From IMG/VR virus record IMGVR_UViG_3300046092_000062, positions 61,866 through 125,865 of that record: 64,000 bases of DNA; one strand, written 5' to 3'. Below are positions 25,802-63,993 of the stretch, one piece after another. The notes beneath the pieces are model-generated. The model was given only the letters and a program-made list of their open reading frames with translations. It was not told where the DNA came from and did no database searches. Every line of letters starts with the position of its first letter. Position 1 is the stretch's first letter. The stretch comes from a virus. Made by a program: the position numbers and the translations under genes.

Positions 25802-26326
25802 ATGAAAACAACTAAACAATGGCTCGAACAAATCAAAGCAGATCCAGTAAAACTCAAGCAGTGGCTTGAACGTCAATACATCGGCGAGTACTTAGCAGCA
25901 GAGCGCATTGCTGATCTTGCGCATGAACAACGTGCTACACGATTTGGTCGAGTGCTGGAAAACATTGCAATTGATGAACTTACACATTCCAAGTGGGTTG
26001 GCAAGTTGCTTACTGATCGCGGCATGACTTTGCCCGAGCCTACAATAAAGGACACACGTTATTGGGAACCAATCCTGAATAACTTGCACACCTTTGAAGA
26101 AATTGCGGGTGCAGGACACCACGCCGAAACCATGCGATTGCGTCGCATCCGTGCATTGGCAGCAGATGAAGAAATTGCACAAGACATTCGCGATGTGTTT
26201 GCAAAGATTCTGCCCGATGAAGAATTCCATGCCAAAGCGTTTGCAGCAATGAGCACAACAGATGCAATTGAAAGCACCCGTGAGCTGCACAACATGGGCC
26301 TGGAAATGCTGGGACTGGAAGTTTAA
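25802..26326 (+). CDS. ferritin-like di-iron carboxylate protein (two ExxH motifs: DELTHSKW and DEEFHAKAF)
   Basis: The spacing of the two ExxH motifs fits a di-iron four-helix bundle. Confidence 0.45.
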   Translation: MKTTKQWLEQIKADPVKLKQWLERQYIGEYLAAERIADLAHEQRATRFGRVLENIAIDELTHSKWVGKLLTDRGMTLPEPTIKDTRYWEPILNNLHTFEEIAGAGHHAETMRLRRIRALAADEEIAQDIRDVFAKILPDEEFHAKAFAAMSTTDAIESTRELHNMGLEMLGLEV

Positions 26327-31583: not shown

Positions 31584-32435
31584 ATGTTTTCAATCGTATT
31601 TTTTGCACTCTTGGCATTGGTTGCTGCTGGTGCTATCAGCGTCTTTCTTAATCAGAAAGCACTTGGCACACTAGTAGGTATTGTCATCTTTATCGGTGGC
31701 ATGGCGTTTAGTTCATTCACTGTTATCAGTGCTGGACACACAGGCGTTATTGTTACCCTAGGTGAAGTTAACCCGGTAACACTTACTGAAGGTTGGCACC
31801 TTGTTAATCCGGTGAGCCAAGTTAAAGACGTTAACGTTCAACTTCAGCGCACTCAGCTAGCAGGTGCTAACGCAAGTACCAAAGACTTGCAGGTTGTACA
31901 CACTGACATCGTTGTTCAGTATCGACTACACGCAGACAAAGTGCCGCACATCTACAAAGAGTACGGCTTGAATGTGGATGACAAGGTTCTTGGTCCAGCT
32001 ATTAACGAAGCGTTCAAATCAATCACTGCCAAATACACAAGTGAGGAATTGGTTACTAAGCGACAGATTGTTAGTGACGAAATCCAAACTATGTTGAAGG
32101 GTAAAGTTGCTCCGTTTGACATCGACGTAAGTGGTATTAGTTTGGTTAACTTTGGATTCTCAGCAGAGTACCAAAAGGCCATTGAGCAGAAGGTTATTGC
32201 TACTCAACAAACAGCCAAAGCTGAACAAGACTTGGCTCGTATTAAAGTTGAAGCCGCAAGCCGTATCGCTCAAGCTGAAGGTGAAGCCAAAGCTATTGCT
32301 ATTCAAGCAAGTGCTATCCAAAGCAATGGTGGACAGAACTATGTGCAGTTGCAATGGATTGAGAAATGGAATGGCAAATTGCCAGACACTGTGCTCAATG
32401 GCAACTCTAGTATGATGTTGAACATGGGCAAATAA
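31584..32435 (+). CDS. SPFH/band-7 (stomatin/prohibitin/HflK-like) membrane protein
   Basis: An N-terminal transmembrane segment and the SPFH core (GVIVTLGEV...VQLQRTQ...) are present. A terminator follows. Confidence 0.7.
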   Translation: MFSIVFFALLALVAAGAISVFLNQKALGTLVGIVIFIGGMAFSSFTVISAGHTGVIVTLGEVNPVTLTEGWHLVNPVSQVKDVNVQLQRTQLAGANASTKDLQVVHTDIVVQYRLHADKVPHIYKEYGLNVDDKVLGPAINEAFKSITAKYTSEELVTKRQIVSDEIQTMLKGKVAPFDIDVSGISLVNFGFSAEYQKAIEQKVIATQQTAKAEQDLARIKVEAASRIAQAEGEAKAIAIQASAIQSNGGQNYVQLQWIEKWNGKLPDTVLNGNSSMMLNMGK

Positions 32436-34286: not shown

Positions 34287-35477
34287 ATGAAAAAATACGA
34301 TACAGTTGAAGATTACATTGAAGTTATTTCTGGCTACCGTGACGTTGTTACCGGTAAGCCCAAGAGTTCGTGGATGTTTAGCTTTGATCCGATTATCAAT
34401 CTAGCTAGATATGATGTTAGTGTGCTGACCAGTATGTGCGAAGCTACATACTCAGCCAAGCCTCTAACTGAACGACAAGGCGAACTGGCTTGCAAGATCC
34501 TTCTTAAGTACCAACGGCAACTTGCAGCAAAGGGCGTTGATGTAAGTCCCATTGAGCAGCCGGTGTGGAGAAATAAATTACGTAAGATGGATTACACCAA
34601 GTCCCTTACTATTAGGGATGACACCATTGTTCTGCAATTTCCTTACTCGACAGACTTGATTGAGCGTTTACGGGCTTTCAGGAAAGATAGTCAGGGACGA
34701 TGCGTATTTGACAAAGAAAAGAAGCAATGGCACATTGCCCTGACAGAATATAATCTAAACTACTGCTATGCGTGGGCTGCATCCAATGGCTTTACTGTTG
34801 GCGAAGAAGTCATTGAGTTGAATAACAAGATTGCTCAGGTTGAACAACAGCCATATGCGATTGAGTTGTTTTGCAACGGTACATCTCTAGACATTAGAAA
34901 CTGCCCAGACAGCCTGCGTGAATACATTGAAACTAAACTAGGTGGATTTGCATTTGATAATCTGCTACGTCTAGTAGATGCCTCTAGTGATTTAGGGTAC
35001 ACTATTGATGAAGATCTAAGCCAAGCTGTGATCCAAGAGTGGGGCACAAGATTCCTACGCATTGCAAGCCATCGCGAAGTTAAGATTAACAGTGATGTTG
35101 GCATCGATGAAGATCATTTGTCTAGCGTGTTGGACTATGCAGTAAAGGTTGGACGTTTGCCCGTGGTAATTTATGAGCCCGACTTGAGTATTCGATTGTT
35201 CCAGCGATTAAAGGAATTGTACCCAGACGAACAAATCATTGACGTTGGCAACAGCAAAAGCGTACAAGAACGTATAACACCAGAGACAAAGTTCATATAT
35301 ACAGTTAAGCCCATTAAAGACCTTGAACACATCCCCATGCTTATTAGCACATCGGGAATGATCTTTGGCGGCGACAAACAAACCATGTTACAAAGATCCA
35401 GTAAGGTAGTATATACCGCAGCAGATGTGTATACTAAAGGCAATACTGGAAAGAAAGTTATTAAAATTGCAGGCTAA
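34287..35477 (+). CDS. hypothetical protein (precedes the helicase)
   Basis: ORF 34266..35477 trimmed to the ATG at 34287. Confidence 0.5.
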   Translation: MKKYDTVEDYIEVISGYRDVVTGKPKSSWMFSFDPIINLARYDVSVLTSMCEATYSAKPLTERQGELACKILLKYQRQLAAKGVDVSPIEQPVWRNKLRKMDYTKSLTIRDDTIVLQFPYSTDLIERLRAFRKDSQGRCVFDKEKKQWHIALTEYNLNYCYAWAASNGFTVGEEVIELNNKIAQVEQQPYAIELFCNGTSLDIRNCPDSLREYIETKLGGFAFDNLLRLVDASSDLGYTIDEDLSQAVIQEWGTRFLRIASHREVKINSDVGIDEDHLSSVLDYAVKVGRLPVVIYEPDLSIRLFQRLKELYPDEQIIDVGNSKSVQERITPETKFIYTVKPIKDLEHIPMLISTSGMIFGGDKQTMLQRSSKVVYTAADVYTKGNTGKKVIKIAG

Positions 35478-36993
35478 ATTAATTATCAAAGACGAAGTTA
35501 ACGTAAAGATTGAAGGCGTTGACGTAGGGGTTAGGAAGAAACTTGTAGACAAGTTCAAATACGAAATCCCCGGAGCACGGTATCAGCCTAGCGTTCGCTT
35601 GGGACGATGGGACGGCAAAGTTAGTTACTTTCAATTAGGTGGCAGCAGCTACATTAACCTGTTGCCTGAAATCTTGCCCGTACTAGATGCAGCAGGTTAC
35701 GACATCGAAATTGACGATCGTCGCACATACTCTAATACCATTGTGTTTGACGAGTTTAAAGAAGACACGTTTGCTCACAAGACATGGCCTGTTGGGCATC
35801 CGGCAGCAGGACAGCCTGTTATGTTCCGCGACTATCAAGTTGGTATTATCAACAACTTCTTACAGAACCCGCAGGCATTGCAAGAGATTGCCACAGGCGC
35901 AGGCAAGACAATTATGACTGCGGCGTTGTCGTTGAGTGCCGAGAAGTACGGTAAGAGTGTGGTTATTGTTCCTAACAAGGACTTGGTGCGTCAAACAGAG
36001 CTAGACTACATTAACTTGGGATTAGACGTTGGTGTGTACTTTGGTGATCGCAAGGAAGTTGGACGCACTCATACTATTTGCACATGGCAGAGCTTGAACA
36101 TTCTAATGAAGAACAGTGAAGGCCGCAATGGTGAAGATGAACCGGCTAGCCATCGTTTGTTAAAGGATCCAACAGACTATATCATTGACGATCTCGTTGA
36201 TGGAGTGGCATTAGTTATGGTAGACGAAGTACACATGGCCAAAGCAGATGCGTTAAAGACTTTGTTGACAAGTGTGTTTGCCCATGTGCCTATCCGTTGG
36301 GGACTAACAGGAACAGTGCCTAAAGAAGAATATGCAGCAGTGTCAATCTTCTGTAGCCTTGGTCCGGTAGTTGGTAAGCTAAGTGCAAGTGAATTGCAAG
36401 AAGCCGGACATTTGGCCATGTGCCACGTTAACGTTGTGCAGCTAATTGATCACGTAGAGTATAAAGACTACCAAAGTGAACTAAAGTACTTGACTACTAC
36501 AGCGGCACGTATTGCATACATTGCCAAGCTAGTGGACAAGATTAAAGAGGGCGGTAATACCCTTGTTCTAGTTGACCGCATTGAAACTGGCAAGATGTTG
36601 CAAGTGGAACTGAGTGGATTGTTTAGTTTACTAAGCGACAAGCCAGACGTGATGTTTGTTAACGGATCTACTAAAGCAAAGGATCGGAAAGATGAATATG
36701 ACGATGTTGCAACAGCAACTAACAAGATTATTGTGGCGACTTATGGTGTGGCCGCTGTGGGTATTAATATTCCTAGGATTTTTAATCTGGTTCTTATGGA
36801 GCCCGGAAAGAGCTTTGTGCGGGTTATACAAAGTATTGGGCGAGGCATTAGAAAAGCGGAAGACAAAGACCATGTAGAGATTTGGGATGTGACCAGTACC
36901 TGCAAGTTTTCTAAACGTCACCTAACAGCACGTAAGAAATTCTACAAAGATGCTAACTACCCATTTACAGTAGAGAAGATTGATTGGCAATGA
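35425..36993 (+). CDS. SF2 DEAD/DEAH-box-type DNA helicase (Walker A TGAGKT; motif II DEVH; motif VI QSIGRGIR)
   Basis: The helicase motifs occur in canonical order. Confidence 0.7.
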   Translation: MCILKAILERKLLKLQAKLIIKDEVNVKIEGVDVGVRKKLVDKFKYEIPGARYQPSVRLGRWDGKVSYFQLGGSSYINLLPEILPVLDAAGYDIEIDDRRTYSNTIVFDEFKEDTFAHKTWPVGHPAAGQPVMFRDYQVGIINNFLQNPQALQEIATGAGKTIMTAALSLSAEKYGKSVVIVPNKDLVRQTELDYINLGLDVGVYFGDRKEVGRTHTICTWQSLNILMKNSEGRNGEDEPASHRLLKDPTDYIIDDLVDGVALVMVDEVHMAKADALKTLLTSVFAHVPIRWGLTGTVPKEEYAAVSIFCSLGPVVGKLSASELQEAGHLAMCHVNVVQLIDHVEYKDYQSELKYLTTTAARIAYIAKLVDKIKEGGNTLVLVDRIETGKMLQVELSGLFSLLSDKPDVMFVNGSTKAKDRKDEYDDVATATNKIIVATYGVAAVGINIPRIFNLVLMEPGKSFVRVIQSIGRGIRKAEDKDHVEIWDVTSTCKFSKRHLTARKKFYKDANYPFTVEKIDWQ

Positions 36994-40970: not shown

Positions 40971-41465
40971 ATGCAGACTACCAAAATATATTTATATGAT
41001 AACACGGTGACGGTTCAAATAATGGACCCCACCATCTTCACCACAAGGAACAGACCTGTGTACAGTCGCCCTATTAAAGTCTATCAAGGTATAGACAACC
41101 CAATCCAAGTTTTAGTAAAGAACCAGGACCAGAAAGCTGCAAACATTGCAGGCTATGCAGTCCAAGCTGATATCCAAGACCCAACTAACCAAGTGACGGT
41201 TAGCAGCTATGCTGTCACATTCTCTAATGTGTCGTTGGGACAAGGTACATTTACTATTGACAAAAATACTGTTAGCAGCTTAGAGCAACGTTTCTACAAG
41301 TTAACCTTTAAAACAATTAAAACAAGTGACAATTCAGAGACACCTGCGTATGTAGATGACAACTACGGCGCACCACTAGACCTGCAAGTGCTACCTGCAT
41401 ATTATTCAGTAACTGAGCCTAGCCCAACTGTTGATAATAGTGTAATTGATGGCGGAGATATTTAA
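40971..41465 (+). CDS. hypothetical structural protein
   Basis: ORF track entry immediately upstream of the fiber genes. Confidence 0.45.
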   Translation: MQTTKIYLYDNTVTVQIMDPTIFTTRNRPVYSRPIKVYQGIDNPIQVLVKNQDQKAANIAGYAVQADIQDPTNQVTVSSYAVTFSNVSLGQGTFTIDKNTVSSLEQRFYKLTFKTIKTSDNSETPAYVDDNYGAPLDLQVLPAYYSVTEPSPTVDNSVIDGGDI

Positions 41466-42952
41466 TGACTATAGCAAATGTAAATGTAAGACAAATCTTA
41501 CTTAAAAAGGGCAACACTGCTCGAAGCCAAAACTACACCGGTGCAATTGGTGAAATTACCCTAGATACAGATTTAAACAGTATCAGAGTACACAATGGCG
41601 TTACAGCAGGCGGCGTTAATATACTTGCGACTCAAGCGCAAATCAACGCTCTAACATCTAGTATTAGTACTATCACTGGATTAGATGCCAACTTAGTTGC
41701 GAACATTAGCTCGTTGCTAGCCAATGCAGCAAGTCAACAGACCACGATCAATTCTTTACTTGCCAACGCAGCAAGCCAACAAACACAGATTGCTAATATT
41801 ACCACCGGTACTGCAACCTTTGGAAACTTGTTACCAAGTGCTAACGTAACATACAGTTTAGGTAGCCCGACACAGCAGTGGAAAGACTTGTACGTTAGCA
41901 GCAACACTATCTACATTGCTGGTATCCCGTTGCGAGTAGACACCAATGGAAATTTAACCATTAACGGCAACAGTGTAAGCGGTGGTCCGAGTGGAACGGT
42001 ATTGCCGCCGGACGCAAATGGCGTGCTAACTAACCTCAATGGGGGACTGGCGTGGGGCGATCCTAATAGACTTGGCTATAACGACACCTTAATCTATATG
42101 TCGGGGTATGATTCTAATCTTATTTTCCAGCGTGGACAAACACGCTACGGTGAAATTAAAGCAGGTCCGGAATTCTTTGGACTAGAAAACAGCGGCGAAA
42201 TTACCATTAACACCGGCGCCACATGGTCCTTTGCACAGGATGGTACATTAACATTCCCTGACAATCTCACAGTTGTTGACAGCGTTATTGGTCGTCGACT
42301 AGAAGAAGTTAACGGCGAAGCAGTGGATGCAGTAGGATCAAAGTTGACATTTACTGATACTGATGTACAAATGGAGGCATACGCCGATCCAGACGGACTT
42401 AACAACATAGCTCATGCTCGCTTGTTTGCTAATGCTACCTCAGCAATTATGGAAGCATCGATTGAAGACGTCGCTGGCGTAACTTTTGGACGAATAACAG
42501 TAGCTGGTGGTGGCATAGACATGTCACTAAGTGATGGTGTACTCGACAATTCGTGGGACTTTGCTTTAGATGGGACTACATTATTACCCAATGGTGGTCG
42601 AGTAGTTTTTGGTGCGCAAAACGGCGATTCGTACATCCAAGCAGGGCAAGGCTTCCACATCAGTAGCCGCGAAGGCATTAGTCTTGAAGCAGTGGATGCA
42701 ACAGATCCAGAGAATCCAGTTACACAAGGATGGTACTTTAGTCCAGATAGCAGAATAACATTCCCTGATGGTACAAAGCAAGGTACTGCATACGTCCACA
42801 ATAATGTCAACTTAGATGGCGGAGGAGCTAGCACAGTGTACGAAGTAGAAACAGCATACGCAGATGGCGGCTTTGCTAGCATTAGAAGTTTTAGTGAAAC
42901 GTTTGATGGCAACGAAGGCAACAATTACATATTAGATGGTGGTAGAGCATAA
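41465..42952 (+). CDS. tail-fiber-like structural protein (internal SLLANAASQQT(T/Q)I duplication)
   Basis: A Gly/Ser/Thr/Asn-rich beta-structure-like composition, in a run of ATGA-linked fiber genes. Confidence 0.5.
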   Translation: MTIANVNVRQILLKKGNTARSQNYTGAIGEITLDTDLNSIRVHNGVTAGGVNILATQAQINALTSSISTITGLDANLVANISSLLANAASQQTTINSLLANAASQQTQIANITTGTATFGNLLPSANVTYSLGSPTQQWKDLYVSSNTIYIAGIPLRVDTNGNLTINGNSVSGGPSGTVLPPDANGVLTNLNGGLAWGDPNRLGYNDTLIYMSGYDSNLIFQRGQTRYGEIKAGPEFFGLENSGEITINTGATWSFAQDGTLTFPDNLTVVDSVIGRRLEEVNGEAVDAVGSKLTFTDTDVQMEAYADPDGLNNIAHARLFANATSAIMEASIEDVAGVTFGRITVAGGGIDMSLSDGVLDNSWDFALDGTTLLPNGGRVVFGAQNGDSYIQAGQGFHISSREGISLEAVDATDPENPVTQGWYFSPDSRITFPDGTKQGTAYVHNNVNLDGGGASTVYEVETAYADGGFASIRSFSETFDGNEGNNYILDGGRA

Positions 42953-43950
42953 TGGCAAATAGAATACAACTACGCAGAGATACAGCAGCTAACTGGGCTA
43001 GCGTTAACCCTGTATTAGCAGATGGCGAGCCCGGCTTAGAGTGGGACACAAACAAGATCAAATACGGCGATGGCATTACTAGCTGGGACGGATTGAGCTA
43101 TGCTGGCAACGAGGTCACTTACGGTAACGTGCAAGTTGCAGAATACCTTACTCAATTTGATGGTACCATTAACTTTACATCTAGTCCAGCTGGTATCAGT
43201 GGAGCTGGTATTATCAGCACAGAAAGCCTGATTGCGTCGACTGCAACACTAACTTCGATTGAAAATGAAGTATCACAGGTGGGCACACAAATCACCGGAA
43301 TTGAAGCATGGGCCGGCGCTGGCGCAGATAACGGCTTTGTATGGATTGGATCTAATCCCAATTTTGATTCGTTGTTTAACATCGGCGATAGCATTGTTGG
43401 TTGGAGTTTTTACCCAGAGGGATCTCCGGAGGCAGCAGTAACTATTACAGAATACAACCCACCACTTGGTGCTCCTGCCTTGCGCTTTTCTGGAAGTCCT
43501 GGTTCGGCACCGTATGTAGCACAAAGTCCAGATTATTCGTCTGTACAAAATCCAGTGACAGTAACCGTTGACACTAATAACTGGGTGTTTAATGCAGATG
43601 GATCACTAACATTGCCAGCAACGTCTGCTAACGTGAGCATTGATGCTACTACTAACATTGTGTCCTTGGGCACTAACGATACTATCACATTCAGTGGGTT
43701 TAGTGGAGAAATCCTAGTTAACGACTTGTATGATGGTTACATGTACAAATATCTAGTGGGTAGCGGCAGCGTTTGGTTAATGGGCAGTACAAACACCAAT
43801 TGGACTCCGGCAAATACTGCGCCAGGAAACAGCGTAACAGTTGCTGGTTATACGTCAATTGCATTTACTACCGGCGCATACATATTCACTAACTTGGCAG
43901 AAGAACGATCATACAGCTTTTATGCCGTTAAGACCAGAAACGGTGCTTAA
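42952..43950 (+). CDS. tail fiber / receptor-binding protein with a conserved N-terminal anchor (MANRIQLRRDTAANW..NPVLADGEPGLEWDTNKIKYGDG)
   Basis: The N-terminal 50 residues are shared with 43983..45425 and 62422..63993. Confidence 0.6.
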   Translation: MANRIQLRRDTAANWASVNPVLADGEPGLEWDTNKIKYGDGITSWDGLSYAGNEVTYGNVQVAEYLTQFDGTINFTSSPAGISGAGIISTESLIASTATLTSIENEVSQVGTQITGIEAWAGAGADNGFVWIGSNPNFDSLFNIGDSIVGWSFYPEGSPEAAVTITEYNPPLGAPALRFSGSPGSAPYVAQSPDYSSVQNPVTVTVDTNNWVFNADGSLTLPATSANVSIDATTNIVSLGTNDTITFSGFSGEILVNDLYDGYMYKYLVGSGSVWLMGSTNTNWTPANTAPGNSVTVAGYTSIAFTTGAYIFTNLAEERSYSFYAVKTRNGA

Positions 43951-43982
43951 CAATAAATATAACATAACAAGGATTTTAGAAA

Positions 43983-45425
43983 ATGGCCTCAAAGATACAA
44001 ATTAGACGAGACACAGCGGATAACTGGACTAACACAAACCCAGTTTTAGCTCAAGGTGAGCCGGGATTAGAAACAGACACACGTAAGATCAAGTACGGCG
44101 ACGGCAACTCCTATTGGGTTGACTTATCGTATTCGGCTGCTGGTGTTGACATCGGCAACGATGGACAAATCACTATCGGCGAAGGTGCAGGTGCCGATGG
44201 TACAGGAACAAATGCAATCGCAATCGGTACAGACGCTGGTGTAAACCAACAGTATGTAGCTATTGCTATCGGTCATGCTGCGGGTAACAATAACCAAGGC
44301 GGCCAAGCTATTGCTATCGGTCGTAGTGCAGGTAACAATAACCAAGACATGAACGCGATTGCTATCGGTCGATATGCTGGTAATCAAGACCAACAAGAAG
44401 AAACTATTGCTATCGGTCGTTATGCTGGTAGAACAAACCAACGTTTCCACGCTATTGCCATTGGCGCACAAGCTGGCGAATCTGACCAGTACTGGGACGC
44501 TATTGCCATTGGTCGCAGTGCAGGTAACAACGGACAAGATCATCAAACTATTGCTATCGGACAACGTGCTGGACAAGACTACCAAGCGAGTCAAGCCATT
44601 GCTATTGGTGCATACGCAGGCAATGACACCCAAGGACAGAACTCTATTGCGATTGGTGCTTATGCAGGGCAGAACAGCCAATACAATAACAGCATTGTGA
44701 TTAACGCCACTGGCAGCTTACTAGACAGCGACGATACTGGTACGTTTATTGTTAAGCCAGTTCGTAGCACGGCCGATATGACTGGCTTTACCCCAATGGG
44801 ATACAATGCAGATACTGGCGAAATTGCTGCCAGTGCCCAGGGTACTATTTTAGCGACTAACACAGTTAGTGGCGGCGAAGGTACTATAATTGGCCGCGCA
44901 ACTGCAATTAGCTGGAACCCAACTAGCGGGTCCAACCTAACTCCTGGTACGTATGATTTTACATTGGAATTCAATGGCGGCCTGTTTTTACGTGCAGACA
45001 TATCGGAGTCTGGAGACATTGCGCTTAGTATTCTTGACGGCGGATACGGGCATACTGTTACAAATAACACTGTAATTAATGGTACAACAATCGGTGGATC
45101 TAGTCCAGCAAATGATGTAACCGTTACTATCGACGCAGTAACTGATATTTCAGATTACACTGCATTAGATTTAACCAAATCTATTAACAAGTTGAACGAC
45201 GGCTACTATACACTAGCAGACGGCACAGAAGGTCAAATTATGTATTTGGCATCACTTAGCAGCATTACTAACCCATCTAGTGTACGAGTAACGGTGGCCA
45301 ATGGTCGCGGTAACGGCAGTTCATGGCAAGACGGTTGGCTATTTCCGTTTAACGGCAGCGGAGTATGCACACTGCTATTTACAGATGGTTCATGGCAGAT
45401 CGTTAGCGGCGGAATCTGGGATTAA
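43983..45425 (+). CDS. tail fiber / receptor-binding protein with the same N-terminal anchor and about 11 tandem 15-aa (AIAIGxxAGxxxQ) repeats
   Basis: The N-terminus is MASKIQIRRDTADNW...GEPGLETDTRKIKYGDG, and the repeats are obvious in the translation. Confidence 0.6.
   Translation: MASKIQIRRDTADNWTNTNPVLAQGEPGLETDTRKIKYGDGNSYWVDLSYSAAGVDIGNDGQITIGEGAGADGTGTNAIAIGTDAGVNQQYVAIAIGHAAGNNNQGGQAIAIGRSAGNNNQDMNAIAIGRYAGNQDQQEETIAIGRYAGRTNQRFHAIAIGAQAGESDQYWDAIAIGRSAGNNGQDHQTIAIGQRAGQDYQASQAIAIGAYAGNDTQGQNSIAIGAYAGQNSQYNNSIVINATGSLLDSDDTGTFIVKPVRSTADMTGFTPMGYNADTGEIAASAQGTILATNTVSGGEGTIIGRATAISWNPTSGSNLTPGTYDFTLEFNGGLFLRADISESGDIALSILDGGYGHTVTNNTVINGTTIGGSSPANDVTVTIDAVTDISDYTALDLTKSINKLNDGYYTLADGTEGQIMYLASLSSITNPSSVRVTVANGRGNGSSWQDGWLFPFNGSGVCTLLFTDGSWQIVSGGIWD
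44211..44700 (+). repeat. about 11 tandem 45-bp coding repeats (ATTGCTATCGGTCG...GCTGGTAA...)
   Basis: Direct repeats are visible in the DNA and as the AIAIG(R/A)xAG motif in the protein. Confidence 0.7.
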
Positions 45426-45681: not shown

Positions 45682-46644
45682 ATGATTAAAGTTTTTGACT
45701 CAGCGATCGACGATACAACAGCCATTGAATTATGGAACAAGTATCGTCGATTTCGTTTTAGCTACTACTGGGCAGGTAATGTCAAGTCTTCCTTGAACCA
45801 CTGGCATCACGGCATTGCCGACGGTGGCCTCAATGGAGTGGATGATGTTTCACATAAGTTTTATAATAAGCCAGGGTATGAATTGGAGTCCCGTGTATGG
45901 GACGTTATCAAGCGTGACATTATTACTGAGCCCTGCAAGCTACTACGTTGTTATGTAAATGCCTACACCTTTGGTACAGAGGGTGCAATGCACACTGACA
46001 GCAATAGAGAAGGTGAATTCACTGTCATGCTCTATCTCAACCGAGAATGGCAAATGAACTGGGCAGGAGAAACAGTTATCCTTGACGCAGAAGGTAAAGA
46101 TATCCAGCAGTCAGTGATACCGAGATTTAGGCGCATTGTGAAATTTCCCTGCAACCAATTACATGCAGCCAGACCCGTTAGTAAGACTTGCAATGAGCTG
46201 AGGGAAGTGTTAGTATACAAGATACGTTTAGATTCTGCACCAGATATCATTGAAGCAAAATACACAGCCTTGCTTAATCAAATTGGTGCAGACAAAACGC
46301 AGCACTCTAAAGGCACACTAAAAAGCCATTTAATGGGCACGTATCAAATACTGCAAAACAAAAAGCAAAACATTGATGTATGCCTAGCAGGATTGTTCCA
46401 CAGTGTATATGGCACCAGTATCTTTACATACTCGAGTACATCCGATAGAGATGCAGTAAGAGCAGTGATTGGGGAAACTGCTGAACGTCTTGTGTGGTTG
46501 TTTTGTAACCTAGATCGGCCTACATGCTGGTCAGTGCAGGGTAATGTCTTGCCCACAAAAGACGGCAGCACTATTACGGTTAGTGATGTAGAGCGAGAGC
46601 AGTTGGCGCAAATTGAAGCAGCTAACTTAGAAGATCAACGATAA
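45682..46644 (+). CDS. 2-oxoglutarate/Fe(II) oxygenase superfamily (HTDSN...LHAARPV) with a C-terminal extension
   Basis: The HxD...H arrangement is PhyH-like. Confidence 0.5.
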   Translation: MIKVFDSAIDDTTAIELWNKYRRFRFSYYWAGNVKSSLNHWHHGIADGGLNGVDDVSHKFYNKPGYELESRVWDVIKRDIITEPCKLLRCYVNAYTFGTEGAMHTDSNREGEFTVMLYLNREWQMNWAGETVILDAEGKDIQQSVIPRFRRIVKFPCNQLHAARPVSKTCNELREVLVYKIRLDSAPDIIEAKYTALLNQIGADKTQHSKGTLKSHLMGTYQILQNKKQNIDVCLAGLFHSVYGTSIFTYSSTSDRDAVRAVIGETAERLVWLFCNLDRPTCWSVQGNVLPTKDGSTITVSDVEREQLAQIEAANLEDQR

Positions 46645-47702
46645 TGTTTAATACAATCCAAGACGCAGTGCGTCAAATACTTCCTGCTAAAAAGAAAACC
46701 AGTTCTAACGGGTGGATCAGTTTCAATGGCGTGTGTTGTACGCATAATGGCGAAAGCGCAGACACACGGGGCAGGGGCGGTCTTGTGATGAACGCAGATG
46801 GTGGTACAAGCTATCACTGCTTTAACTGTGGATTCAAAGCCAACTACACACCGGGTCGTCACTTAAACTATAAATTCCGTAAGCTATTAAGCTGGCTTGG
46901 TGCAAGCGAGAACGAAGTAAAGCGTTTGGTCATTGACGCACTTCGAGTTAAAGATCTAGTCGCACCCGAGACTATTAAAGAAGAGCGAGAAGAAGTTTCG
47001 TTTAAGGCGCGAGCACTACCAGAGGATGCAGTGAGTTTTAAGGAGTGGGAGACATTCCTGCGCTTACAAGACGACGACGAGCCCGTGCATCCACAATTTG
47101 CCAGCGCATTTAACTACATTTACAATCGTAAGATTGATTACAGTAGGTACGATTTTTACACCACAGAGAACGAAGCATACAATTTGCACAAACGTGTGAT
47201 TGTTCCCTTTAAGTGGAAAGGACAGATAATTGGATACACAGCAAGAACATGGGACAACAACGTCAAGCCCAAATACCACAACCACCATGAGCCTAATTTC
47301 GTCTTTAATATGGATGAGCAGCTGGATACTAGCAAGTTTGTTCTTGTCATGGAAGGTCCGTTTGATGCGATGTCTGTTGACGGTGTTGCTATTCTGGGCT
47401 CCGAATGTAATGAGACTCAAGCAGACATTATCGAATCTCTTGGTCGTGAAGTTATTGTAGTTCCAGACTTTGACATTAAAGAAGTTAAGGGCAAGATGGT
47501 ATGGGCTGGAGAAAAGTTAGTAGACCAGGCAATTGAATATGGCTGGTCTGTTAGTTTCCCAGTCTGGCGAGAACTGGTTAAAGACACTGCAAATGCAGTT
47601 GAATCATACGGTAAGCTATTTACTATGAAGAGTATCTTAGAGGGCAAGCAAACGAGCAGATTAAAGATTGAGCTTATGAAGCGCCGCATATATAATAGCT
47701 AA
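46644..47702 (+). CDS. DNA primase (T7 gp4-type zinc ribbon CTHNG...CFNC plus a TOPRIM domain)
   Basis: A zinc-binding domain sits at the N-terminus, followed by an EGxxD TOPRIM motif (MEGPFDAMS). Confidence 0.7.
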   Translation: MFNTIQDAVRQILPAKKKTSSNGWISFNGVCCTHNGESADTRGRGGLVMNADGGTSYHCFNCGFKANYTPGRHLNYKFRKLLSWLGASENEVKRLVIDALRVKDLVAPETIKEEREEVSFKARALPEDAVSFKEWETFLRLQDDDEPVHPQFASAFNYIYNRKIDYSRYDFYTTENEAYNLHKRVIVPFKWKGQIIGYTARTWDNNVKPKYHNHHEPNFVFNMDEQLDTSKFVLVMEGPFDAMSVDGVAILGSECNETQADIIESLGREVIVVPDFDIKEVKGKMVWAGEKLVDQAIEYGWSVSFPVWRELVKDTANAVESYGKLFTMKSILEGKQTSRLKIELMKRRIYNS

Positions 47703-47714
47703 CAGGAAAATTAC

Positions 47715-49154
47715 ATGGCAACAAAAGAATACAGTACCGACTTACAAAAGCTATTTTTAGAGATGATGTTACAGGATGCACAAAGTTATGTGCGTGTGGC
47801 TAACATTTACAATCCCGAAAACTTTGATCGCAGCATTAGATCCGCAGCGGAATTTATTAAGACACACAGTAATGACTTTAAAACATTACCAGGCTACGAT
47901 CAAATCAAAGCAGTTACAGGCGTAGAGCTAAAAGCAATTCCCGATGTAGGTGAAGGGCATACTGAATGGTTCTTAACTGAGTTTGAAAACTTTACCAAGC
48001 GACAAGAGCTAGAACGTGCGATCCTTAAGGCAGCGGACATGTTAGAAGCTGGCGACTTTGATCCGGTAGAGAAGCTGATCAAGGATGCAGTGCAGATCAG
48101 TTTGCAAAAAGACATGGGTACAGATTACTTTGCTGACCCAGCAGGTCGTATTAACAAATATTACAACAGCGGCGGACAAGTAAGTACTGGATGGCCGCAA
48201 CTGGATCGACTGCTATACGGCGGGTTCTCGCGTGGTGAACTAAACATCTTTGCAGGTGGATCTGGTTCTGGTAAGTCATTGGTTATGATGAACATTGCAC
48301 TCAGCTGGTTGCAAGCAGGACTAAGTGGTGTGTATGTTACGCTGGAATTGAGCGAAGAACTTACATCATTGCGTACTGATGCTATGCTAACTGGCATGGG
48401 CACAAAAGACATCCGCAAGGACATTGATACCACAACGCTTAAAGTTAAGCTGGTTAGCAAAAAGTCTGGGCAGTATCGCATCAAGGCATTGCCAGCGCAG
48501 AGCAACGTTAACGACATTCGTGCTTACCTAAAGGAAGTGCAATTACAAACAGGCATCAAAGTTGACTTTGTGATGGTTGACTACCTTGACTTGGTTATGC
48601 CTGTGTCAGTTAAAGTTAACCCTAACGACCAGTTTATTAAAGACAAGTATGTAGCAGAAGAGTTGCGTAACTTGGCAAAGGAACTAGGTATCTTGTTAGT
48701 TACAGCAAGTCAGTTGAACCGCAGTGCCGTTGAAGAAGTTGAATTTGATCACAGTCACATTGCTGGCGGTATCTCTAAGATTAACACTGCTGACAACGTG
48801 TTTGGTATTTTTACTAGTCGTGCTATGAAGGAACGCGGCAAGTATCAAATCCAGTGTATGAAGTCGCGTAGTTCTACTGGTGTGGGACAAAAGATTGATC
48901 TCGAATACAACATCGAAACCATGCGTATTACAGATCCGGGCATCGATGAAAGCAGTGGCAATGGTGGTCCACCTAGACTTGCTGGCATTATGAATCAGAT
49001 CAAGAACAAGCCAGCGGCGTCCGATGATGAAGGGCCGTCGTCATTTGAACGTGCAACTGGAACGCCTGCGTGGGAACAAGGTCCTAAAGTCACAGGCGAA
49101 GTGCAAAGCAATAAGCTAAAGCAGATGCTAGCCGGGCTTAAGAAGGGTGAATAA
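47715..49154 (+). CDS. DnaB-family replicative DNA helicase (Walker A GGSGSGKS)
   Basis: A RecA-like core with Walker A and Walker B motifs. The layout is similar to the T7 gp4 helicase domain. Confidence 0.75.
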   Translation: MATKEYSTDLQKLFLEMMLQDAQSYVRVANIYNPENFDRSIRSAAEFIKTHSNDFKTLPGYDQIKAVTGVELKAIPDVGEGHTEWFLTEFENFTKRQELERAILKAADMLEAGDFDPVEKLIKDAVQISLQKDMGTDYFADPAGRINKYYNSGGQVSTGWPQLDRLLYGGFSRGELNIFAGGSGSGKSLVMMNIALSWLQAGLSGVYVTLELSEELTSLRTDAMLTGMGTKDIRKDIDTTTLKVKLVSKKSGQYRIKALPAQSNVNDIRAYLKEVQLQTGIKVDFVMVDYLDLVMPVSVKVNPNDQFIKDKYVAEELRNLAKELGILLVTASQLNRSAVEEVEFDHSHIAGGISKINTADNVFGIFTSRAMKERGKYQIQCMKSRSSTGVGQKIDLEYNIETMRITDPGIDESSGNGGPPRLAGIMNQIKNKPAASDDEGPSSFERATGTPAWEQGPKVTGEVQSNKLKQMLAGLKKGE

Positions 49155-50156
49155 GTCGGGCAAGTAATCTGCAATGGAGATATTCTTTAGCAGATCTTGT
49201 GTTAAAATTTCGTCAGAAAATCGCCGGAAATCGAGATCGTCTTGATCTCGATGTTCTCTAAATAATTTATTGGGATTAGATTTTTTAACATGCTCTGGTA
49301 AACAATTTAAATTAAAATATGTAGGAGATGAAACAAGATTGTGATTGTAGGACAAACCGGCATCGCGAAACCAGCCAACTGTAGCTGAGTGTTGTAGTAT
49401 GTTAAGATTGCTTATAGTGTAGCTAACAGTTAATTGGATTCCGAGGTCGCGGTATTGTTGTAAATTTAACAGTAACCGATCCCACGTTAATGGATACCGT
49501 ATGTACTCAAATGTCGGTCCAATTCCATCTATGCTCACACAAAAATTCAGTCTACTAAACTTGGATAATATTGCAAGTTGTTCTCTATTCAAATGAATTG
49601 ACCCATTGGTTACTAGCGATACAAAGCATGAGGTATTACCGGAATCGATTAATCTTTGTAACACATCAAAATTCTTTTTCTCATATAGAGGCTCGCCTCC
49701 TACAAAAGACAACATTTTTAGATTTTTAAAATCAATGTTATTAATTTGACTATCATTGATTTTAATCATTTTTTCTCCGGTATTTTTGAGACTTGCCCAC
49801 TTTGAACTTGAATGTTCGTTACAGGTAACGCAGGTTGAGTTGCAGAGATTAGATGTGTATAATTTAACTATCTGTTCAGAGAACACACCATTGGCACAAT
49901 CATCTTTAACAAACCTTATATCTTTATTGGCATAAAAATCATATGATGTGTTTTTTATCTGCCTGTCGCTTTGGATTTGTTGATCTTCTAACACCCAACA
50001 TTTACTACATTCAACAGGTCGTTGGTTCTTTAACATTTCCTGTTGTATGGTCTTTATACTTCTATTAGACCTTGCCATTAAACAACATGGGGTATCAAAT
50101 TTGTTTTTACTGTATTCTGCACCGTAAAACGGCATTACGCAAAAGGTATCATTCAT
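49128..50156 (-). CDS. radical SAM enzyme (CNSTCVTC) with an N-terminal Cys-rich domain; paralog of 3084..4307
   Basis: A CX3CX2C triad is present, and the N-terminal architecture (FCVMPFY...PCC...CSKC) matches the other paralog. Confidence 0.65.
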   Translation of the reverse strand: MNDTFCVMPFYGAEYSKNKFDTPCCLMARSNRSIKTIQQEMLKNQRPVECSKCWVLEDQQIQSDRQIKNTSYDFYANKDIRFVKDDCANGVFSEQIVKLYTSNLCNSTCVTCNEHSSSKWASLKNTGEKMIKINDSQINNIDFKNLKMLSFVGGEPLYEKKNFDVLQRLIDSGNTSCFVSLVTNGSIHLNREQLAILSKFSRLNFCVSIDGIGPTFEYIRYPLTWDRLLLNLQQYRDLGIQLTVSYTISNLNILQHSATVGWFRDAGLSYNHNLVSSPTYFNLNCLPEHVKKSNPNKLFREHRDQDDLDFRRFSDEILTQDLLKNISIADYLPDLFTLLKPG

Positions 50157-58315: not shown

Positions 58316-58999
58316 ATGAGATTAAACGAAATGGGCGCTAAGCCAACCGCAAAACAAATGAACAAAGTCATGGAAAGCCGCTTTGGTTTCCAAGTTGACT
58401 ATGCAAACTTAACCTTCAAGAAGGCTTACACGATGGCAACTGCTATCAGCGAAAGCCTAAACAAGATTAAGAGTACACACGGCGTTCACACTGCTGAAAA
58501 GAATCCATCTTACATGGAAATGCTTATGGTACGTGAAAGCCTACACAGCTGGATGCGTGACAACAAACAACAGTTGATCAACGAAAGCGAAATGGCCAAG
58601 TCTGAAGCTATCTTAGCTGCAAAAGACATGGTTGATAGCATCCAAGACATGTTGGAAAAAATCAGCAAAATGCAGAACGAACAGTTACCTGCATTGTTAG
58701 ACACAATCCGTGACCAAATTGGCATTGAAAAAGCCGACGGCTTTAAGAGCGCAGTTAGCCCATTGCTAGGCAATTTGGCACAAACACTACAACAAGGTCG
58801 CGAAACTGCTGATTCAGCAGCACGTGGCTTAGCCGGCGAAGACATGGGCCAAGATATGGGCATGGGCGGAGCAGACTTAGGTCCAAGCATGGGCGGTGGT
58901 CTTGACGGCGAAATGAGTGATATGGACCAAGGCGCTGACTTTGGTGCCAGCGATGCAGCAACAGGCGGTACAGCCGACTTAGGCAGAGAAGTACGCTAA
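58316..58999 (+). CDS. hypothetical protein with a Gly/Asp/Met-rich C-terminus
   Basis: ORF track entry. Confidence 0.45.
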   Translation: MRLNEMGAKPTAKQMNKVMESRFGFQVDYANLTFKKAYTMATAISESLNKIKSTHGVHTAEKNPSYMEMLMVRESLHSWMRDNKQQLINESEMAKSEAILAAKDMVDSIQDMLEKISKMQNEQLPALLDTIRDQIGIEKADGFKSAVSPLLGNLAQTLQQGRETADSAARGLAGEDMGQDMGMGGADLGPSMGGGLDGEMSDMDQGADFGASDAATGGTADLGREVR

Positions 59000-59421
59000 T
59001 GCGATTCGCAGAAATTATTGTTGAAGACAGCGGCATAGGCGCAATGATCGAAGACGAGGCAGAAACTCGTGGAGATAGCGTCTTAGCCACAGCTCTTGAA
59101 GAATTACGCAATCGTGCTCATGGGCATTCAGTCCCTAAGGTACGTGTTGACAGCTTAGTTAATCTAGTTAAGCGTTTACCAGGCGGTGAATCGTTTAACG
59201 CAGATGCACTAGAATCTGCACGTAAGAGCAACGACACAATCAAAAACTTAATCACAGATATTAAAGACGACGAAAACGGCGTTAAGTACGTTTACTTGGC
59301 TACATTTAGTGATGACGGTTTCGGTGATGAATCGACTCCTGGTGCAGAAGACGGAGCACAAACTGCTCCTGAGAAAACTGTTAGCAGTATGGCTAACAGG
59401 GCACTAGGAAACCGTGGCTAA
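58999..59421 (+). CDS. hypothetical acidic protein
   Basis: ORF track entry. Confidence 0.4.
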   Translation: MRFAEIIVEDSGIGAMIEDEAETRGDSVLATALEELRNRAHGHSVPKVRVDSLVNLVKRLPGGESFNADALESARKSNDTIKNLITDIKDDENGVKYVYLATFSDDGFGDESTPGAEDGAQTAPEKTVSSMANRALGNRG

Positions 59422-59451
59422 ATCTGTTATAGTTGTCCATAAAGGACTTAT

Positions 59452-59844
59452 ATGGCATATTCAGACAAGGTAATTGATCACTATGAGAACCCACGTAATG
59501 TGGGTTCTTTTGCGAGTGAGGACAGCGATGTTGGCACTGGTATGGTTGGCGCACCCGCTTGTGGTGACGTAATGAAATTACAAATAAAGGTAGACTCGAA
59601 TGGAATTATCACCGATGCACGTTTTAAGACTTATGGTTGCGGGAGTGCTATTGCAAGCAGCTCATTGGTTACTGAGTGGGTTAAAGGAAAAAGTCTGTCC
59701 GAAGCAGCAAGCATCACAAACAGTGAGATCGCAGGCGAGCTAGCTCTACCACCAGTTAAAATCCATTGTAGCATCTTAGCTGAGGATGCAATCAAAGCAG
59801 CAATTGAAAATTATCGAGCAAAGAATGATTCTAGTTTACAGTGA
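59452..59844 (+). CDS. iscU: IscU/NifU-type Fe-S cluster assembly scaffold
   Basis: The sequence is almost colinear with E. coli IscU as recalled (MAYS(D/E)KVIDHYENPRNVGSF...GAPACGDVMKLQIKV...FKTYGCGSAIASSSLVTEWVKGKSL...LPPVKIHCSILAEDAIKAAI), including the three cluster-ligand Cys residues. Confidence 0.85.
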   Translation: MAYSDKVIDHYENPRNVGSFASEDSDVGTGMVGAPACGDVMKLQIKVDSNGIITDARFKTYGCGSAIASSSLVTEWVKGKSLSEAASITNSEIAGELALPPVKIHCSILAEDAIKAAIENYRAKNDSSLQ

Positions 59845-60910
59845 TAGTCAGATTATTGACTTAGAGTGGCTTCCAAAAATACAGTTCAACCGCCCATACA
59901 CAATTTGTCACAGCATCGACGAATACGAAGCAGCACAAGTTGACACCAAGATAGCATTTACTACACACCGACTACACTGTGACTTTGATACAGCCTACGT
60001 TGGATTTGAAGATAAGATAAACCGTTTAAGTTACATTAGTGATTTAGTTTTCACCTTTGAAAGCGAATTGCACAACTTCCATTGGCAAATTTGGGACCAA
60101 TGCCATCACGACAATGTCTACTGGATGTTGCCAGGCGCAGTAAACGACAGAGATGACATTAACAGTCACATTCTATGCTGGGGCGACTGGTTTAAAACAA
60201 CAGCAAATATCTATAAAGCATTGCCAGACAAAGTAATGCACATCAACTACTCTGCTACCAAGCCCAAGTACTTTGATGCCTTACTAGGCAGTCCTAAGCC
60301 ACACAGAGACTTTGTGTTTAAAGCAGTTAACGATAACAAGTTAAATGACAAAGTTGTAATGACGTATGGCGGTGACTGGAAAGAAGGCGAGTTCTATGCT
60401 AAGGATTACTTTATTTGGGAAGAAGGAACTACACCAATTGGTCAAACCATTGGCACTGCTGACTGGGCAGACTATTGCGGGCAACGTGTACACCTAAGTC
60501 AGATCATTCCTATCAAGACATTCAACGAAACAGCATACAGTATCATTGCAGAAACTGACTTTGATAATACACTAAGCTGCTTCACTGAGAAAACGGCCAA
60601 GCCAATGATTGGTCGTAGACTGTTTATTGCGTTCACCGGTTACAAGTTTATGCACAATCTACGTGCATTGGGCTTCAAAACATTTGATGGAGTAATTGAC
60701 GAGTCTTATGACTTGATTAAAGACGATAACGAGCGTTATACTGCCGCATTTGAGCAGGTTAAGTGGCTTTGTGAGCAGGATCAAGATGTTATCTATGCCA
60801 AGATCAAGCCTATTGTTGAACATAACTTTCAACTGCTAATGACACGGGATTGGACAGCATGGCCAGCATCCCGTATCACTGAGGTAATTAACTCAACAAT
60901 CGTTGGTTAA
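59825..60910 (+). CDS. hypothetical protein
   Basis: ORF 59786..60910 trimmed to the ATG at 59825. Confidence 0.45.
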   Translation: MILVYSDSQIIDLEWLPKIQFNRPYTICHSIDEYEAAQVDTKIAFTTHRLHCDFDTAYVGFEDKINRLSYISDLVFTFESELHNFHWQIWDQCHHDNVYWMLPGAVNDRDDINSHILCWGDWFKTTANIYKALPDKVMHINYSATKPKYFDALLGSPKPHRDFVFKAVNDNKLNDKVVMTYGGDWKEGEFYAKDYFIWEEGTTPIGQTIGTADWADYCGQRVHLSQIIPIKTFNETAYSIIAETDFDNTLSCFTEKTAKPMIGRRLFIAFTGYKFMHNLRALGFKTFDGVIDESYDLIKDDNERYTAAFEQVKWLCEQDQDVIYAKIKPIVEHNFQLLMTRDWTAWPASRITEVINSTIVG

Positions 60911-62421: not shown

Positions 62422-63993
62422 ATGGCTGTCGTACAGATTTCACGCATTCAGGCACGTAGAGGCCTACAACAAGATTTACCAGCACTAGCAAGCGCAGAGT
62501 TTGCATGGAGTGTTGATACACGTAAGTTATACATCGGTAACGGCACGTTAGCCGAAGGCGCCCCTACTGAAGGGGCAACGGAGATTTTAACTCAGTATAC
62601 CGACTTTGCAGCAGTATTAAAGAATTACACGTTTAAAGGCAATGCTGGCGGATATACTGCACAGACTACTACAAGCCCGCTAAATCCTATCGTACGAACA
62701 ATTCAAGACAAACTTGACGATATTGTTAGTATCAAAGACTTTGGCGCAGTAGGCGATGGCGTAGCAGACGACACCGCAGCAATTAATCGTGCAATCCAAC
62801 AAATTTACTTGACTACACGATTGACAAATTATCCTCAAGTGCGTAGAACAATCTTCTTCCCTGCAGGTACCTACAACGTAACTGGAGAAACTATTTTAAT
62901 TCCGCCATATGCTCGTTTAATCGGGGACGGAATCGAAAGTACAATCATTAAACAAACAGACGGTACACAAACTTCCTTATTCCAGTTTACTGATAGCATG
63001 TACCAGACTGGCGCATCGCTAGGACAAAACAGTGCAACCCTGCCTGGTTACATCACAATCGAAAACATGACATTAGCAACAACTAGTGATCGTGATGTTG
63101 TTGCCATTGACAGCGCAGAACATGTGACATTCTTTGGCGTTGAGTTCTTGGGTAGCCTAAGCAGTCCGACTACTGCTGGTAGTCAAGCATACGCAGGCGT
63201 AAAAATCAATTCCTTTGCAGCGACTACTAAGAATATCAATTTTTGGTCGTGCAAATTTAAGAACACACGTTACGCAGCATTAAGCGATGACGCTAGCAGC
63301 GACGTGAGAATGAACGGGTGTTTATTTGTTGGCTTGTACAAAGGTCTAAAGCTAGGCCAGAACAGTGCAAGCGTTGCAACCACTCCAAGCAACTACAAAA
63401 TTCTAAACAGCATTTTTGCCAGTGTTGCAAACAATGCAATTGACTGCTATGCAAACGTCACTGGCGTACTAAGCAGCGGCAATCACTTCCTTGACGTCGG
63501 TAACAACTTTGCAGGTTCCGGATCTCCTGTGGCATCAATTATTTCGTTTGTGGCAAACGGTAACACCAGTGCCAACGATATGTTTGATCGCCCCGATGCT
63601 GACAACGTAACAGTTCCTCGATTGAGTTTTAACAATGCTAAAAACATTGCAATTCAGGCCAACGTTGGTCTAACAGTTGGTACATATACTATCGGCACTA
63701 GCGGATATGCAGTACTAGCAGACAATACACCAGCCTTTACACAATCAAACATTAACTTAGTCAACGGGTGTACACTAACATACTCAATGACTAGAGGTAC
63801 AGGTAAGCGTTTTGGTACGTTATTCTTTTCAAACGATGGCACCACTGGAGCAAACTTCATTGAGACTGCAACACAAACTGGTTCAAACATTGGAGTTACT
63901 ATCAGTGCAAGTAACGCTAACGTAATCACATATACAACAACTTCTACTGGCTCACCTGCCATCGTTAAATACAACATCAACTACTTCAGTTAA
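62422..63993 (+). CDS. tailspike with the conserved N-terminal anchor and a pectate-lyase-type right-handed beta-helix (DFGAVGDGVADDTAAINRAIQ)
   Basis: The N-terminus MAVVQISRIQARRGLQQDL..W.VDTRKLYIGNG matches the anchor of the other receptor-binding proteins. The pectate-lyase-3 signature is present. Confidence 0.6.
   Translation: MAVVQISRIQARRGLQQDLPALASAEFAWSVDTRKLYIGNGTLAEGAPTEGATEILTQYTDFAAVLKNYTFKGNAGGYTAQTTTSPLNPIVRTIQDKLDDIVSIKDFGAVGDGVADDTAAINRAIQQIYLTTRLTNYPQVRRTIFFPAGTYNVTGETILIPPYARLIGDGIESTIIKQTDGTQTSLFQFTDSMYQTGASLGQNSATLPGYITIENMTLATTSDRDVVAIDSAEHVTFFGVEFLGSLSSPTTAGSQAYAGVKINSFAATTKNINFWSCKFKNTRYAALSDDASSDVRMNGCLFVGLYKGLKLGQNSASVATTPSNYKILNSIFASVANNAIDCYANVTGVLSSGNHFLDVGNNFAGSGSPVASIISFVANGNTSANDMFDRPDADNVTVPRLSFNNAKNIAIQANVGLTVGTYTIGTSGYAVLADNTPAFTQSNINLVNGCTLTYSMTRGTGKRFGTLFFSNDGTTGANFIETATQTGSNIGVTISASNANVITYTTTSTGSPAIVKYNINYFS

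Follow-up and report, generated by a model that had tools for sequence, protein, structure and literature searches.

Why would a large phage carry a lone gene of the bacterial machinery that assembles iron–sulfur (Fe–S) clusters, and what can such a gene tell us about the host? The question is raised by iscU, which encodes the Fe–S scaffold IscU and lies at positions 59452–59844 of a 64,000-nucleotide stretch of the viral record IMGVR_UViG_3300046092_000062 (positions 61,866–125,865 of that record); this whole stretch is referred to below as the window. We conclude that iscU has long resided in a broad phage family, inherited with the genome under strong purifying selection, and is not a fresh capture. 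With a probability of about 0.7, its product is a working auxiliary scaffold that would plug into IscS, ferredoxin, HscA/HscB, and carriers of the host and would raise the Fe–S supply during infection, mainly for the radical S-adenosylmethionine (SAM) enzymes of the phage.

The iscU gene and its product

The protein encoded by iscU scores 220.3 bits (E = 5.4e-66) against TIGR01999, the NCBIfam equivalog model of IscU, and so passes the curated cut-off of 192.4; the match covers residues 3–125 of the protein and positions 1–123 of the 124 positions of the model. For the models of NifU, clostridial NifU, and SufU, the product falls under the respective cut-off. Its top matches in the PDB are IscU from Haemophilus influenzae (1q48, 222 bits) and from Escherichia coli (2l4x, 218 bits). 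In the ungapped alignment with E. coli IscU, the assembly-site residues C37, D39, C63, H105, and C106 all occupy the E. coli positions, and the LPPVK motif recognized by HscA is kept as L99-P100-P101-V102-K103. All IscU positions touching IscS as listed by Shi et al. (2010; PMC2854127), namely Y3, Y11, G38, V40, K42, K59–G64, and K103, are the same as in E. coli, residue 54 being outside that list. The five assembly-site residues and LPPVK are invariant among the 120 closest proteins (P0001–P0120), and the other functional positions are essentially so. The C-terminus bears a short additional tail ending in NDSSLQ. It is thus beyond doubt that the open reading frame (ORF) encodes a true, intact IscU, the function of which is predicted from its sequence. 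An earlier note on this DNA had named the scaffold and reported all cluster-ligand cysteines and the LPPVK motif; both points are confirmed (C37, C63, C106, and residues 99–103), and none of these residues is lost.

The gene and its immediate surroundings are organized as follows.

58316–59421, plus strand: two upstream genes encoding proteins of 227 and 140 amino acids, preserved to the left of iscU in the phage family
59441–59446, plus strand: Shine–Dalgarno-like AAAGGA, 5 nucleotides 5′ of the iscU ATG, read from the sequence
59452–59844, plus strand: iscU, IscU Fe–S scaffold of 130 amino acids, ATG start, TGA stop
59825–60910, plus strand: downstream gene of 361 amino acids, overlapping the 3′ end of iscU by 20 nucleotides

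The gap between iscU and the preceding ORF is 30 nucleotides. The consensus scan of positions 58999–59452 gave no promoter-like and no plus-strand terminator-like site, and thus iscU would be co-transcribed with the upstream genes; the promoter and terminator scans around iscU are uninformative, promoter-like sites being fewer than in shuffled sequence. The upstream protein of 227 amino acids weakly matches phrog_14154, annotated as “virion structural protein” (E = 1.5e-11). The downstream protein of 361 amino acids has no match in Pfam or PHROG; it adjoins iscU in the close lineage and shares 90–98% amino acid identity with its counterparts in loci L161–L164.

In bacteria, the gene belongs to the isc operon, iscRSUA-hscBA-fdx, with iscS upstream and iscA, hscB, hscA, and fdx downstream of iscU. 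This layout is not found in the window. Searches with the Samsonia IscR, IscS, IscA, HscB, HscA, and Fdx proteins (tblastn, E ≤ 1e-5) and with a phage IscA as a query gave no match in the 64 kb, and scans of about 60 ORFs of the window against Pfam, NCBIfam, and PHROG revealed no further Fe–S assembly gene; the other iron enzymes detected by these scans are two 2-oxoglutarate (2OG)-Fe(II) oxygenases and one rubrerythrin-like ORF. As no isc partner genes are present in the window, iscU is an orphan gene on a large phage genome. The phage protein shares family, length, and fold-defining motifs with the bacterial scaffolds of the ISC system (E. coli 2l4x/3lvl, H. influenzae 1q48), and differs from them in its orphan state, in the C-terminal tail, and in residue 54, which is threonine in the phage and glutamate in 77 of 80 bacterial loci.

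Residence in the phage family and the residue 54 signature

We compared 80 bacterial loci and 80 IMG/VR loci; the 84 loci of the viral type are numbered L081–L164. A search of 5.8 billion proteins retrieved IscU copies 92–99% identical to the one considered here, on metagenomic contigs. Viral copies reach 88–99% identity, and the nearest relatives overall are viral. In L161 and L162 (IscU identity 98 and 96%) and in L163 and L164 (89%), gene order is the same as in the window: to the left, DUF6267, several small ORFs, and proteins of 175, 227, and 140 amino acids precede IscU, and to the right follow proteins of 361/374 amino acids, 249 amino acids (reverse strand), a PD-(D/E)XK-like protein of 236 amino acids, a fibre protein of 523 amino acids, a protein of 145 amino acids, and NrdA/NrdB/glutaredoxin. 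The class I ribonucleotide reductase (RNR) and glutaredoxin of the syntenic relatives fall just past the end of the window. The same gene plan is seen in a more distant relative, P0019 (IscU identity 87%, 17 contigs, the longest on a record of 360 kb), and synteny around iscU is also observed in L168 and L169. Among the 80 IMG/VR loci, homologs of the flanking proteins were found for the 227-amino acid protein in 43, for the PD-(D/E)XK protein in 38, for the fibre in 29, and for DUF6267 in 23, and none of the 80 bacterial loci has homologs of the flank proteins. Contigs with these flanks include ones of 160, 245, 300, and 374 kb; the sample names of related contigs, the only source here, suggest lake metagenomes as their habitat.

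The identity of IscU drops along with that of its neighbors, but more slowly (98, 96, 89, 88, and 82%); in L108 and L081, the neighbors are 29–80% identical, and IscU, 82 and 88% identical, respectively. The ratio of nonsynonymous to synonymous substitution rates (dN/dS, Nei–Gojobori) of iscU is 0.047, 0.074, and 0.078 in comparisons with L161, L162, and L163, with dS up to about 1; L081 was left out of this calculation, since an indel shifts the ungapped comparison out of register. The composition of the gene is that of its surroundings, with a G+C content of 0.435 against the window gene mean of 0.436 and a codon usage rank of 27 of 63 genes, whereas the iscU genes of Burkholderiales and Enterobacterales agree far less well with the codon table of the phage than the window iscU does. 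The comparison of G+C content and codon usage that the earlier note had proposed for dating the acquisition thus contradicts recent capture. Taken together, the phage-like composition, the synteny across diverged contigs, and the viral closest relatives show that the acquisition was not recent.

The module that travels with these phages has a characteristic shape. In 70 of the 80 bacterial loci, IscU is surrounded by IscS, IscA, HscB, HscA, and usually Fdx (side by side with these stand six loci, all on contigs of metagenome-assembled genomes (MAGs), namely L005, L019, L028, L031, L054, and L064, which encode an IscU with E54 and no isc partner within 4 kb). No credible iscS, hscB, hscA, or fdx gene was detected in any of the 80 IMG/VR loci, where just three weak matches with 26–43% identity were obtained. 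At the same time, iscA lies on the same strand as iscU in 76 of the 84 viral-type loci, mostly starting right at the iscU end; the related locus L168 also has iscA, at 8374–8697. The presence of iscA directly after iscU, with no other isc genes, fits the capture of a contiguous iscU–iscA piece of an isc operon. No iscA was found near iscU in the window, L161, L162, L108, L129, and L133. Since the window, L161, and L162 are devoid, in the vicinity of iscU, of the gene that most relatives have there, the sub-lineage of the window has lost or moved iscA, which could lie beyond the 64 kb. In L163 (10447–11471) and L164 (2421–3478), an extra ORF of 235–246 amino acids, homing-endonuclease-like by eye, is situated between iscU and iscA, and both this ORF and iscA precede the counterpart of the downstream gene of 361 amino acids.

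Residue 54 sets the viral copies apart. Codon 54 of the window iscU (59611–59613) encodes threonine, where bacterial copies have glutamate. In the 80 bacterial loci, Glu is found 77 times and Thr never; in the 84 viral-type loci, Thr is found 72 times and Glu four times; and the 120 closest proteins worldwide comprise 53 with Ser, 52 with Thr, and ten with Glu. One T54 and one S54 example were inspected, and both reside in phage-like contexts with iscA present and iscS absent. In a neighbor-joining tree constructed with column 54 removed, most T/S sequences fall into one clade of 178 tips, 83% of them T/S, which contains just nine bacterial sequences, Comamonadaceae-like in appearance. The trees are based on 123 columns and poorly resolved, with a Fitch count of 28 state changes at residue 54. 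The replacement of E54 by T or S marks viral IscU copies nearly clade-wide. Monophyly of the viral copies, captured only once from a donor resembling Burkholderiales, is likely from these trees, though not proven. A link of residue 54 to the co-chaperone/desulfurase patch of yeast Isu1 (L63/V72/F94) was considered and dropped, as by the published numbering V72 corresponds to E. coli V40, which is no neighbor of residue 54.

One may go further and suppose that viral IscUs form a long-lived, virus-adapted branch, captured once as iscU–iscA from a Burkholderiales-like isc operon and spread among uncultured phages with big genomes, in which the replacement at residue 54 is adaptive and perhaps changes partner choice or regulation. 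We regard this as a tentative and rather unlikely proposal. If true, the scaffold could monopolize the host IscS and HscBA or escape host control, and would be a specialized takeover device for Fe–S and sulfur traffic of the host, not a plain spare copy. In any case, the E54-to-T/S replacement provides a simple criterion by which viral and cellular IscU could be separated in metagenomes, and a target for mutational work.

Candidate clients and role of the scaffold

The reading that we prefer, a working auxiliary scaffold, draws on the enzymes encoded in the same window. The earlier note had pointed to three phage radical SAM enzymes, and all three were recovered, each with exactly one CX3CX2C motif.

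3084–4307 (listed start 3024), plus strand: radical SAM enzyme 1, twitch-domain type; NF033640 277 bits (cut-off 170), Pfam Radical_SAM 35 bits, motif CNMKCRMC
10233–11408, plus strand: radical SAM enzyme 2, divergent; Pfam Radical_SAM 27.9 bits (cut-off 29.5), motif CNLDCDYC at residues 29–36
49128–50156, minus strand: radical SAM enzyme 3, twitch-domain type; NF033640 208 bits (cut-off 170), motif CNSTCVTC, 9.3 kb upstream of iscU

For the first enzyme, the listed TTG start at 3024 falls inside a tRNA-Phe gene (2993–3068), and thus translation more likely begins at the in-frame ATG at 3084. The second contains 15 cysteines, including C-terminal clusters, and gives weak matches to NCBIfam models of radical SAM/SPASM proteins. 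Homologs of the third occur within 10 kb of iscU in seven IMG/VR loci, and L168 and L169 have a radical SAM gene some 7 kb upstream of iscU. Judged by these sequences, the three enzymes are plausible candidate clients of the phage IscU.

With an intact IscU and three radical SAM enzymes that need [4Fe–4S] clusters in the same 64 kb, an auxiliary Fe–S supply is the best reading of the locus. The phage IscU would dock on the host cysteine desulfurase IscS, build [2Fe–2S] and [4Fe–4S] clusters, and hand them on via the host chaperones HscA/HscB and A-type carriers. The capacity for Fe–S assembly would thereby be raised for phage enzymes, with delivery presumably to the three radical SAM proteins, which include two of the twitch-domain type, and host enzymes needed by the phage may incidentally be supplied with clusters. 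The module would usually be taken up as an iscU–iscA pair devoid of iscS, hscBA, and fdx. A protein that has to fit several host partners would be expected to keep its ligand, IscS-contact, and HscA-contact residues under strong purifying selection, as is the case here.

Several observations weigh against this reading. The gene is located among structural-looking genes, and the nearest radical SAM gene is 9.3 kb off; the sub-lineage of the window is devoid, within the 64 kb, of the iscA partner kept by most relatives; and the residue 54 replacement hints that a viral IscU may behave not exactly like that of the host. Moreover, more IscU in E. coli slowed phage lambda by drawing IscS from tRNA thiolation (PMC3296357), and hence extra IscU is no automatic help to a phage.

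The last point leads to the main alternative, in which the phage IscU mainly occupies the host IscS as a switch of sulfur traffic, outcompeting TusA or other acceptors and thus altering tRNA 2-thiolation (2-thiouridine at position 34 of tRNA-Lys/Glu/Gln), frameshifting, or molybdenum cofactor synthesis. The tRNA genes of the window include four for tRNA-Lys (two UUU and two CUU) and one for tRNA-Gln(UUG). Species of tRNA-Lys and tRNA-Gln(UUG) normally bear IscS-dependent 2-thiouridine at position 34. This alternative would also agree with the preservation of every IscS-contact residue in the phage protein, with no phage iscS being found in the 64-kb window, and with the mutually exclusive binding of IscU and TusA to IscS and the tuning of both tRNA-Lys(UUU) thiolation and lambda growth by the level of IscU (PMC3296357; PMC2854127). 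On the other hand, the cluster ligands, D39, H105, and LPPVK, needless for a pure IscS blocker, are conserved under strong purifying selection; in most relatives, a gene for an A-type carrier is inherited together with iscU, right behind it, and this speaks for genuine assembly and transfer of clusters; and in lambda higher IscU benefited the host and not the phage (PMC3296357). We therefore consider a predominant role in sulfur traffic quite improbable; it and the scaffold role are not mutually exclusive.

Origin, genomic setting, and known viral scaffolds

The earlier note had described the protein as nearly identical to the E. coli scaffold, at 85–90% identity, and had taken the gene as acquired from an enterobacterial host and as pinning the host range. 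BLASTP gives 80% identity to E. coli IscU (101/127, 90% positives, ungapped), and the genes are 69.7% identical at the DNA level. For comparison, the bacterial IscU proteins were surveyed with a pattern-based scan of one genome per species, with at least 600 stretches listed; closer bacteria may exist. Among the matches listed, to which all the following identities refer, IscUs from many bacterial orders are 77–86% identical to the phage protein. The closest belongs to a Burkholderiales MAG, L040 (86%, or 87% over trimmed alignment columns), whose contig, short as it is, carries as many of the flanking isc genes as it can accommodate. Values of 82–83% are shown by many Burkholderiales and other Betaproteobacteria; Psychromonas, Vibrio, and Photorhabdus reach 82%, Samsonia and Pseudescherichia reach 80%, and E. 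coli with other Enterobacterales, 80–82%, no closer than Vibrio, Psychromonas, and Pasteurellaceae. By these comparisons, the 80% shared with E. coli lies at the background level of beta- and gammaproteobacterial IscU (80–87%), several of which are closer than E. coli, so the description as nearly identical is misleading, and a very conserved housekeeping protein cannot be used as a host marker.

Two positions are more informative. T29 and A98 of the phage protein are common to 46 of 46 and 44 of 46 Betaproteobacteria, respectively, and are also present in all or nearly all viral copies and in 13 of 21 non-enteric Gammaproteobacteria, whereas the four Enterobacterales compared all carry S29 and E98. 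When the alignment columns were bootstrapped 1000 times, Betaproteobacteria alone provided the nearest bacterial sequence in 865 replicates, and Enterobacterales alone in 14. The donor lineage looks beta- or non-enteric gammaproteobacterial, and the host is expected to be a proteobacterium that has an ISC system; nothing narrower is indicated.

A recent passenger from an enterobacterial host, marking that host, would account for the match to E. coli IscU (80% identical and 90% similar across 127 residues) and for the intact motifs. It is nevertheless very improbable given the DNA identity of 69.7% to E. coli iscU with a closer Burkholderiales MAG (86%), the T29/A98 pair, the fully phage-like G+C content and codon usage with enterobacterial iscU scoring far worse on the phage codon table, and the syntenic orthologs in diverged phage contigs, which provide the nearest relatives. 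Consequently, the best among the matches listed is not enterobacterial, as a BLASTP check had been expected to show, but viral (88–99%), followed by the Burkholderiales MAG, and the host range is not pinned. Of the proposed auxiliary gene of enterobacterial origin, the auxiliary Fe–S role stands as plausible and has a precedent (PMC5332604), and the origin has to be abandoned. That a bacterial chromosome or prophage flank was misread as phage DNA is scarcely credible: some “phage” records with iscU are indeed bacterial contigs, e.g., “Acinetobacter phage MD-2021a” with a full iscRSUA-hscBA-fdx operon, but the 64 kb considered here contain no isc operon partners, are uniform in composition (G+C 0.40–0.47 along the window), and surround iscU with fibre genes, DUF6267, DnaB, a primase-like ORF, and 16 tRNA genes, with RNR following downstream in the contigs of the same gene order, and none of the 80 bacterial loci has the flanking genes.

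The replication and recombination genes of the window are the following.

35425–36993: UvsW-like helicase
46644–47702: primase-like ORF
47715–49154: DnaB-type helicase

Among cultured phages, DnaB is most similar to its counterparts in the jumbo phages PA5oct, Atu_ph07, and Phosso (45% amino acid identity). Megablast of positions 40–64 kb of the window against 50,697 phage records gave no match, and therefore there is no close cultured relative; the source is a large uncultured phage, probably of the jumbo type. The window also encodes four fibre genes of the Mtd_N type, a DUF6267 protein, and an 800-amino acid LysM protein, and the 16 tRNA genes are interspersed with ORFs at 139–14542. Mtd_N (major tropism determinant N-terminal) domains are found in three consecutive paralogous ORFs (41465–45425) and, together with a pectate-lyase-like domain, in a fourth fibre-like ORF (62422–63993), which 29 of the 80 viral loci have preserved on the right-hand side of iscU. 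A cluster for sugar-nucleotide and glycan modification (15277–22667) comprises a cytidylyltransferase fused to a mannose-6-phosphate isomerase/cupin domain (reverse strand), an NAD-dependent epimerase/dehydratase, a 2OG-Fe(II) oxygenase, a C-methyltransferase with a zinc-binding N-terminal domain, a GT9-like glycosyltransferase, and a DUF5672 protein. Other auxiliary-looking genes encode a dual-specificity phosphatase-like protein (313–888), a dCMP/cytidine deaminase (14560–15033), a rubrerythrin-like protein (25802–26326), an SPFH/Band 7 protein (31584–32435), and a 2OG-Fe(II) oxygenase fused to DUF6817 (45682–46644). A match to the RF-1 domain was obtained among the small ORFs.

Viral genes for IscU and A-type carriers have been known from marine viromes and environmental viral genomes, where radical SAM proteins and glutaredoxin are co-encoded, and their proposed role is the support of viral as well as host Fe–S proteins (Nishimura et al., 2017; PMC5332604). 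These genomes are marine and belong to four groups, including a T4-like one, and their IscUs grouped with gammaproteobacterial homologs, e.g., from SAR86 (Nishimura et al., 2017; PMC5332604). The present case is similar in that a host-type IscU resides on a tailed-phage genome with radical SAM genes, RNR and glutaredoxin being present in the syntenic relatives. It differs in that the phages belong to another, uncultured family with relatives of 160–374 kb and DnaB nearest to that of jumbo phages, that iscU(-iscA) occupies a fixed syntenic position, and that the mostly viral clade is nearest to Burkholderiales-type sequences. Of the features of viral auxiliary Fe–S genes, the location on a viral genome and the co-occurrence with radical SAM genes are found here, whereas the A-type carrier is not found in the 64-kb window.

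Phage C48C1 (Kyanoviridae, OQ984149) was the single source of a genuine IscU of this kind among the 50,697 phage records searched; the protein is annotated there as “NifU-like Fe–S cluster assembly protein” and is 76.6% identical to the window IscU at the protein level. This phage belongs to another family, its iscU lies beside DnaB and replication genes with no iscA nearby, and E54 is kept; its gene is probably an independent acquisition. The blastn and tblastn matches in “Acinetobacter phage MD-2021a” were discarded because these contigs stem from bacterial chromosomes and bear the complete isc operon: L166 (CAKLQF020000009.1, 32382–44753) and also CAKLQH020000011.1 contain iscR-iscS-iscU-iscA-hscB-hscA-fdx, ppiD, hupB, and mfd. 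Such mislabeled records would inflate the counts of phage IscU. The record “Salmonella phage S.Kent 1-2-1” (1.9 kb, unannotated) was left out of the comparison.

Viral iscU accompanied by radical SAM genes, and the proposal of a role for it in Fe–S metabolism, are thus already known, and the gene described here adds a case in an uncultured family. What this case contributes is the correction of the host claim, the conserved, syntenic, and vertically inherited state of iscU(-iscA), the loss or relocation of iscA in the sub-lineage of the window, and the E54-to-T/S marker. Phage genes for Fe–S assembly appear as a recurring class of putative auxiliary metabolic genes. In this family, the scaffold acts like a core gene, with a fixed position and, at deeper divergence, the highest conservation in its neighborhood, and the window encodes three radical SAM enzymes besides. 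This favors the idea that large phages make provision themselves for the enzymes of theirs that need cofactors, relying on IscS and chaperones of the host.

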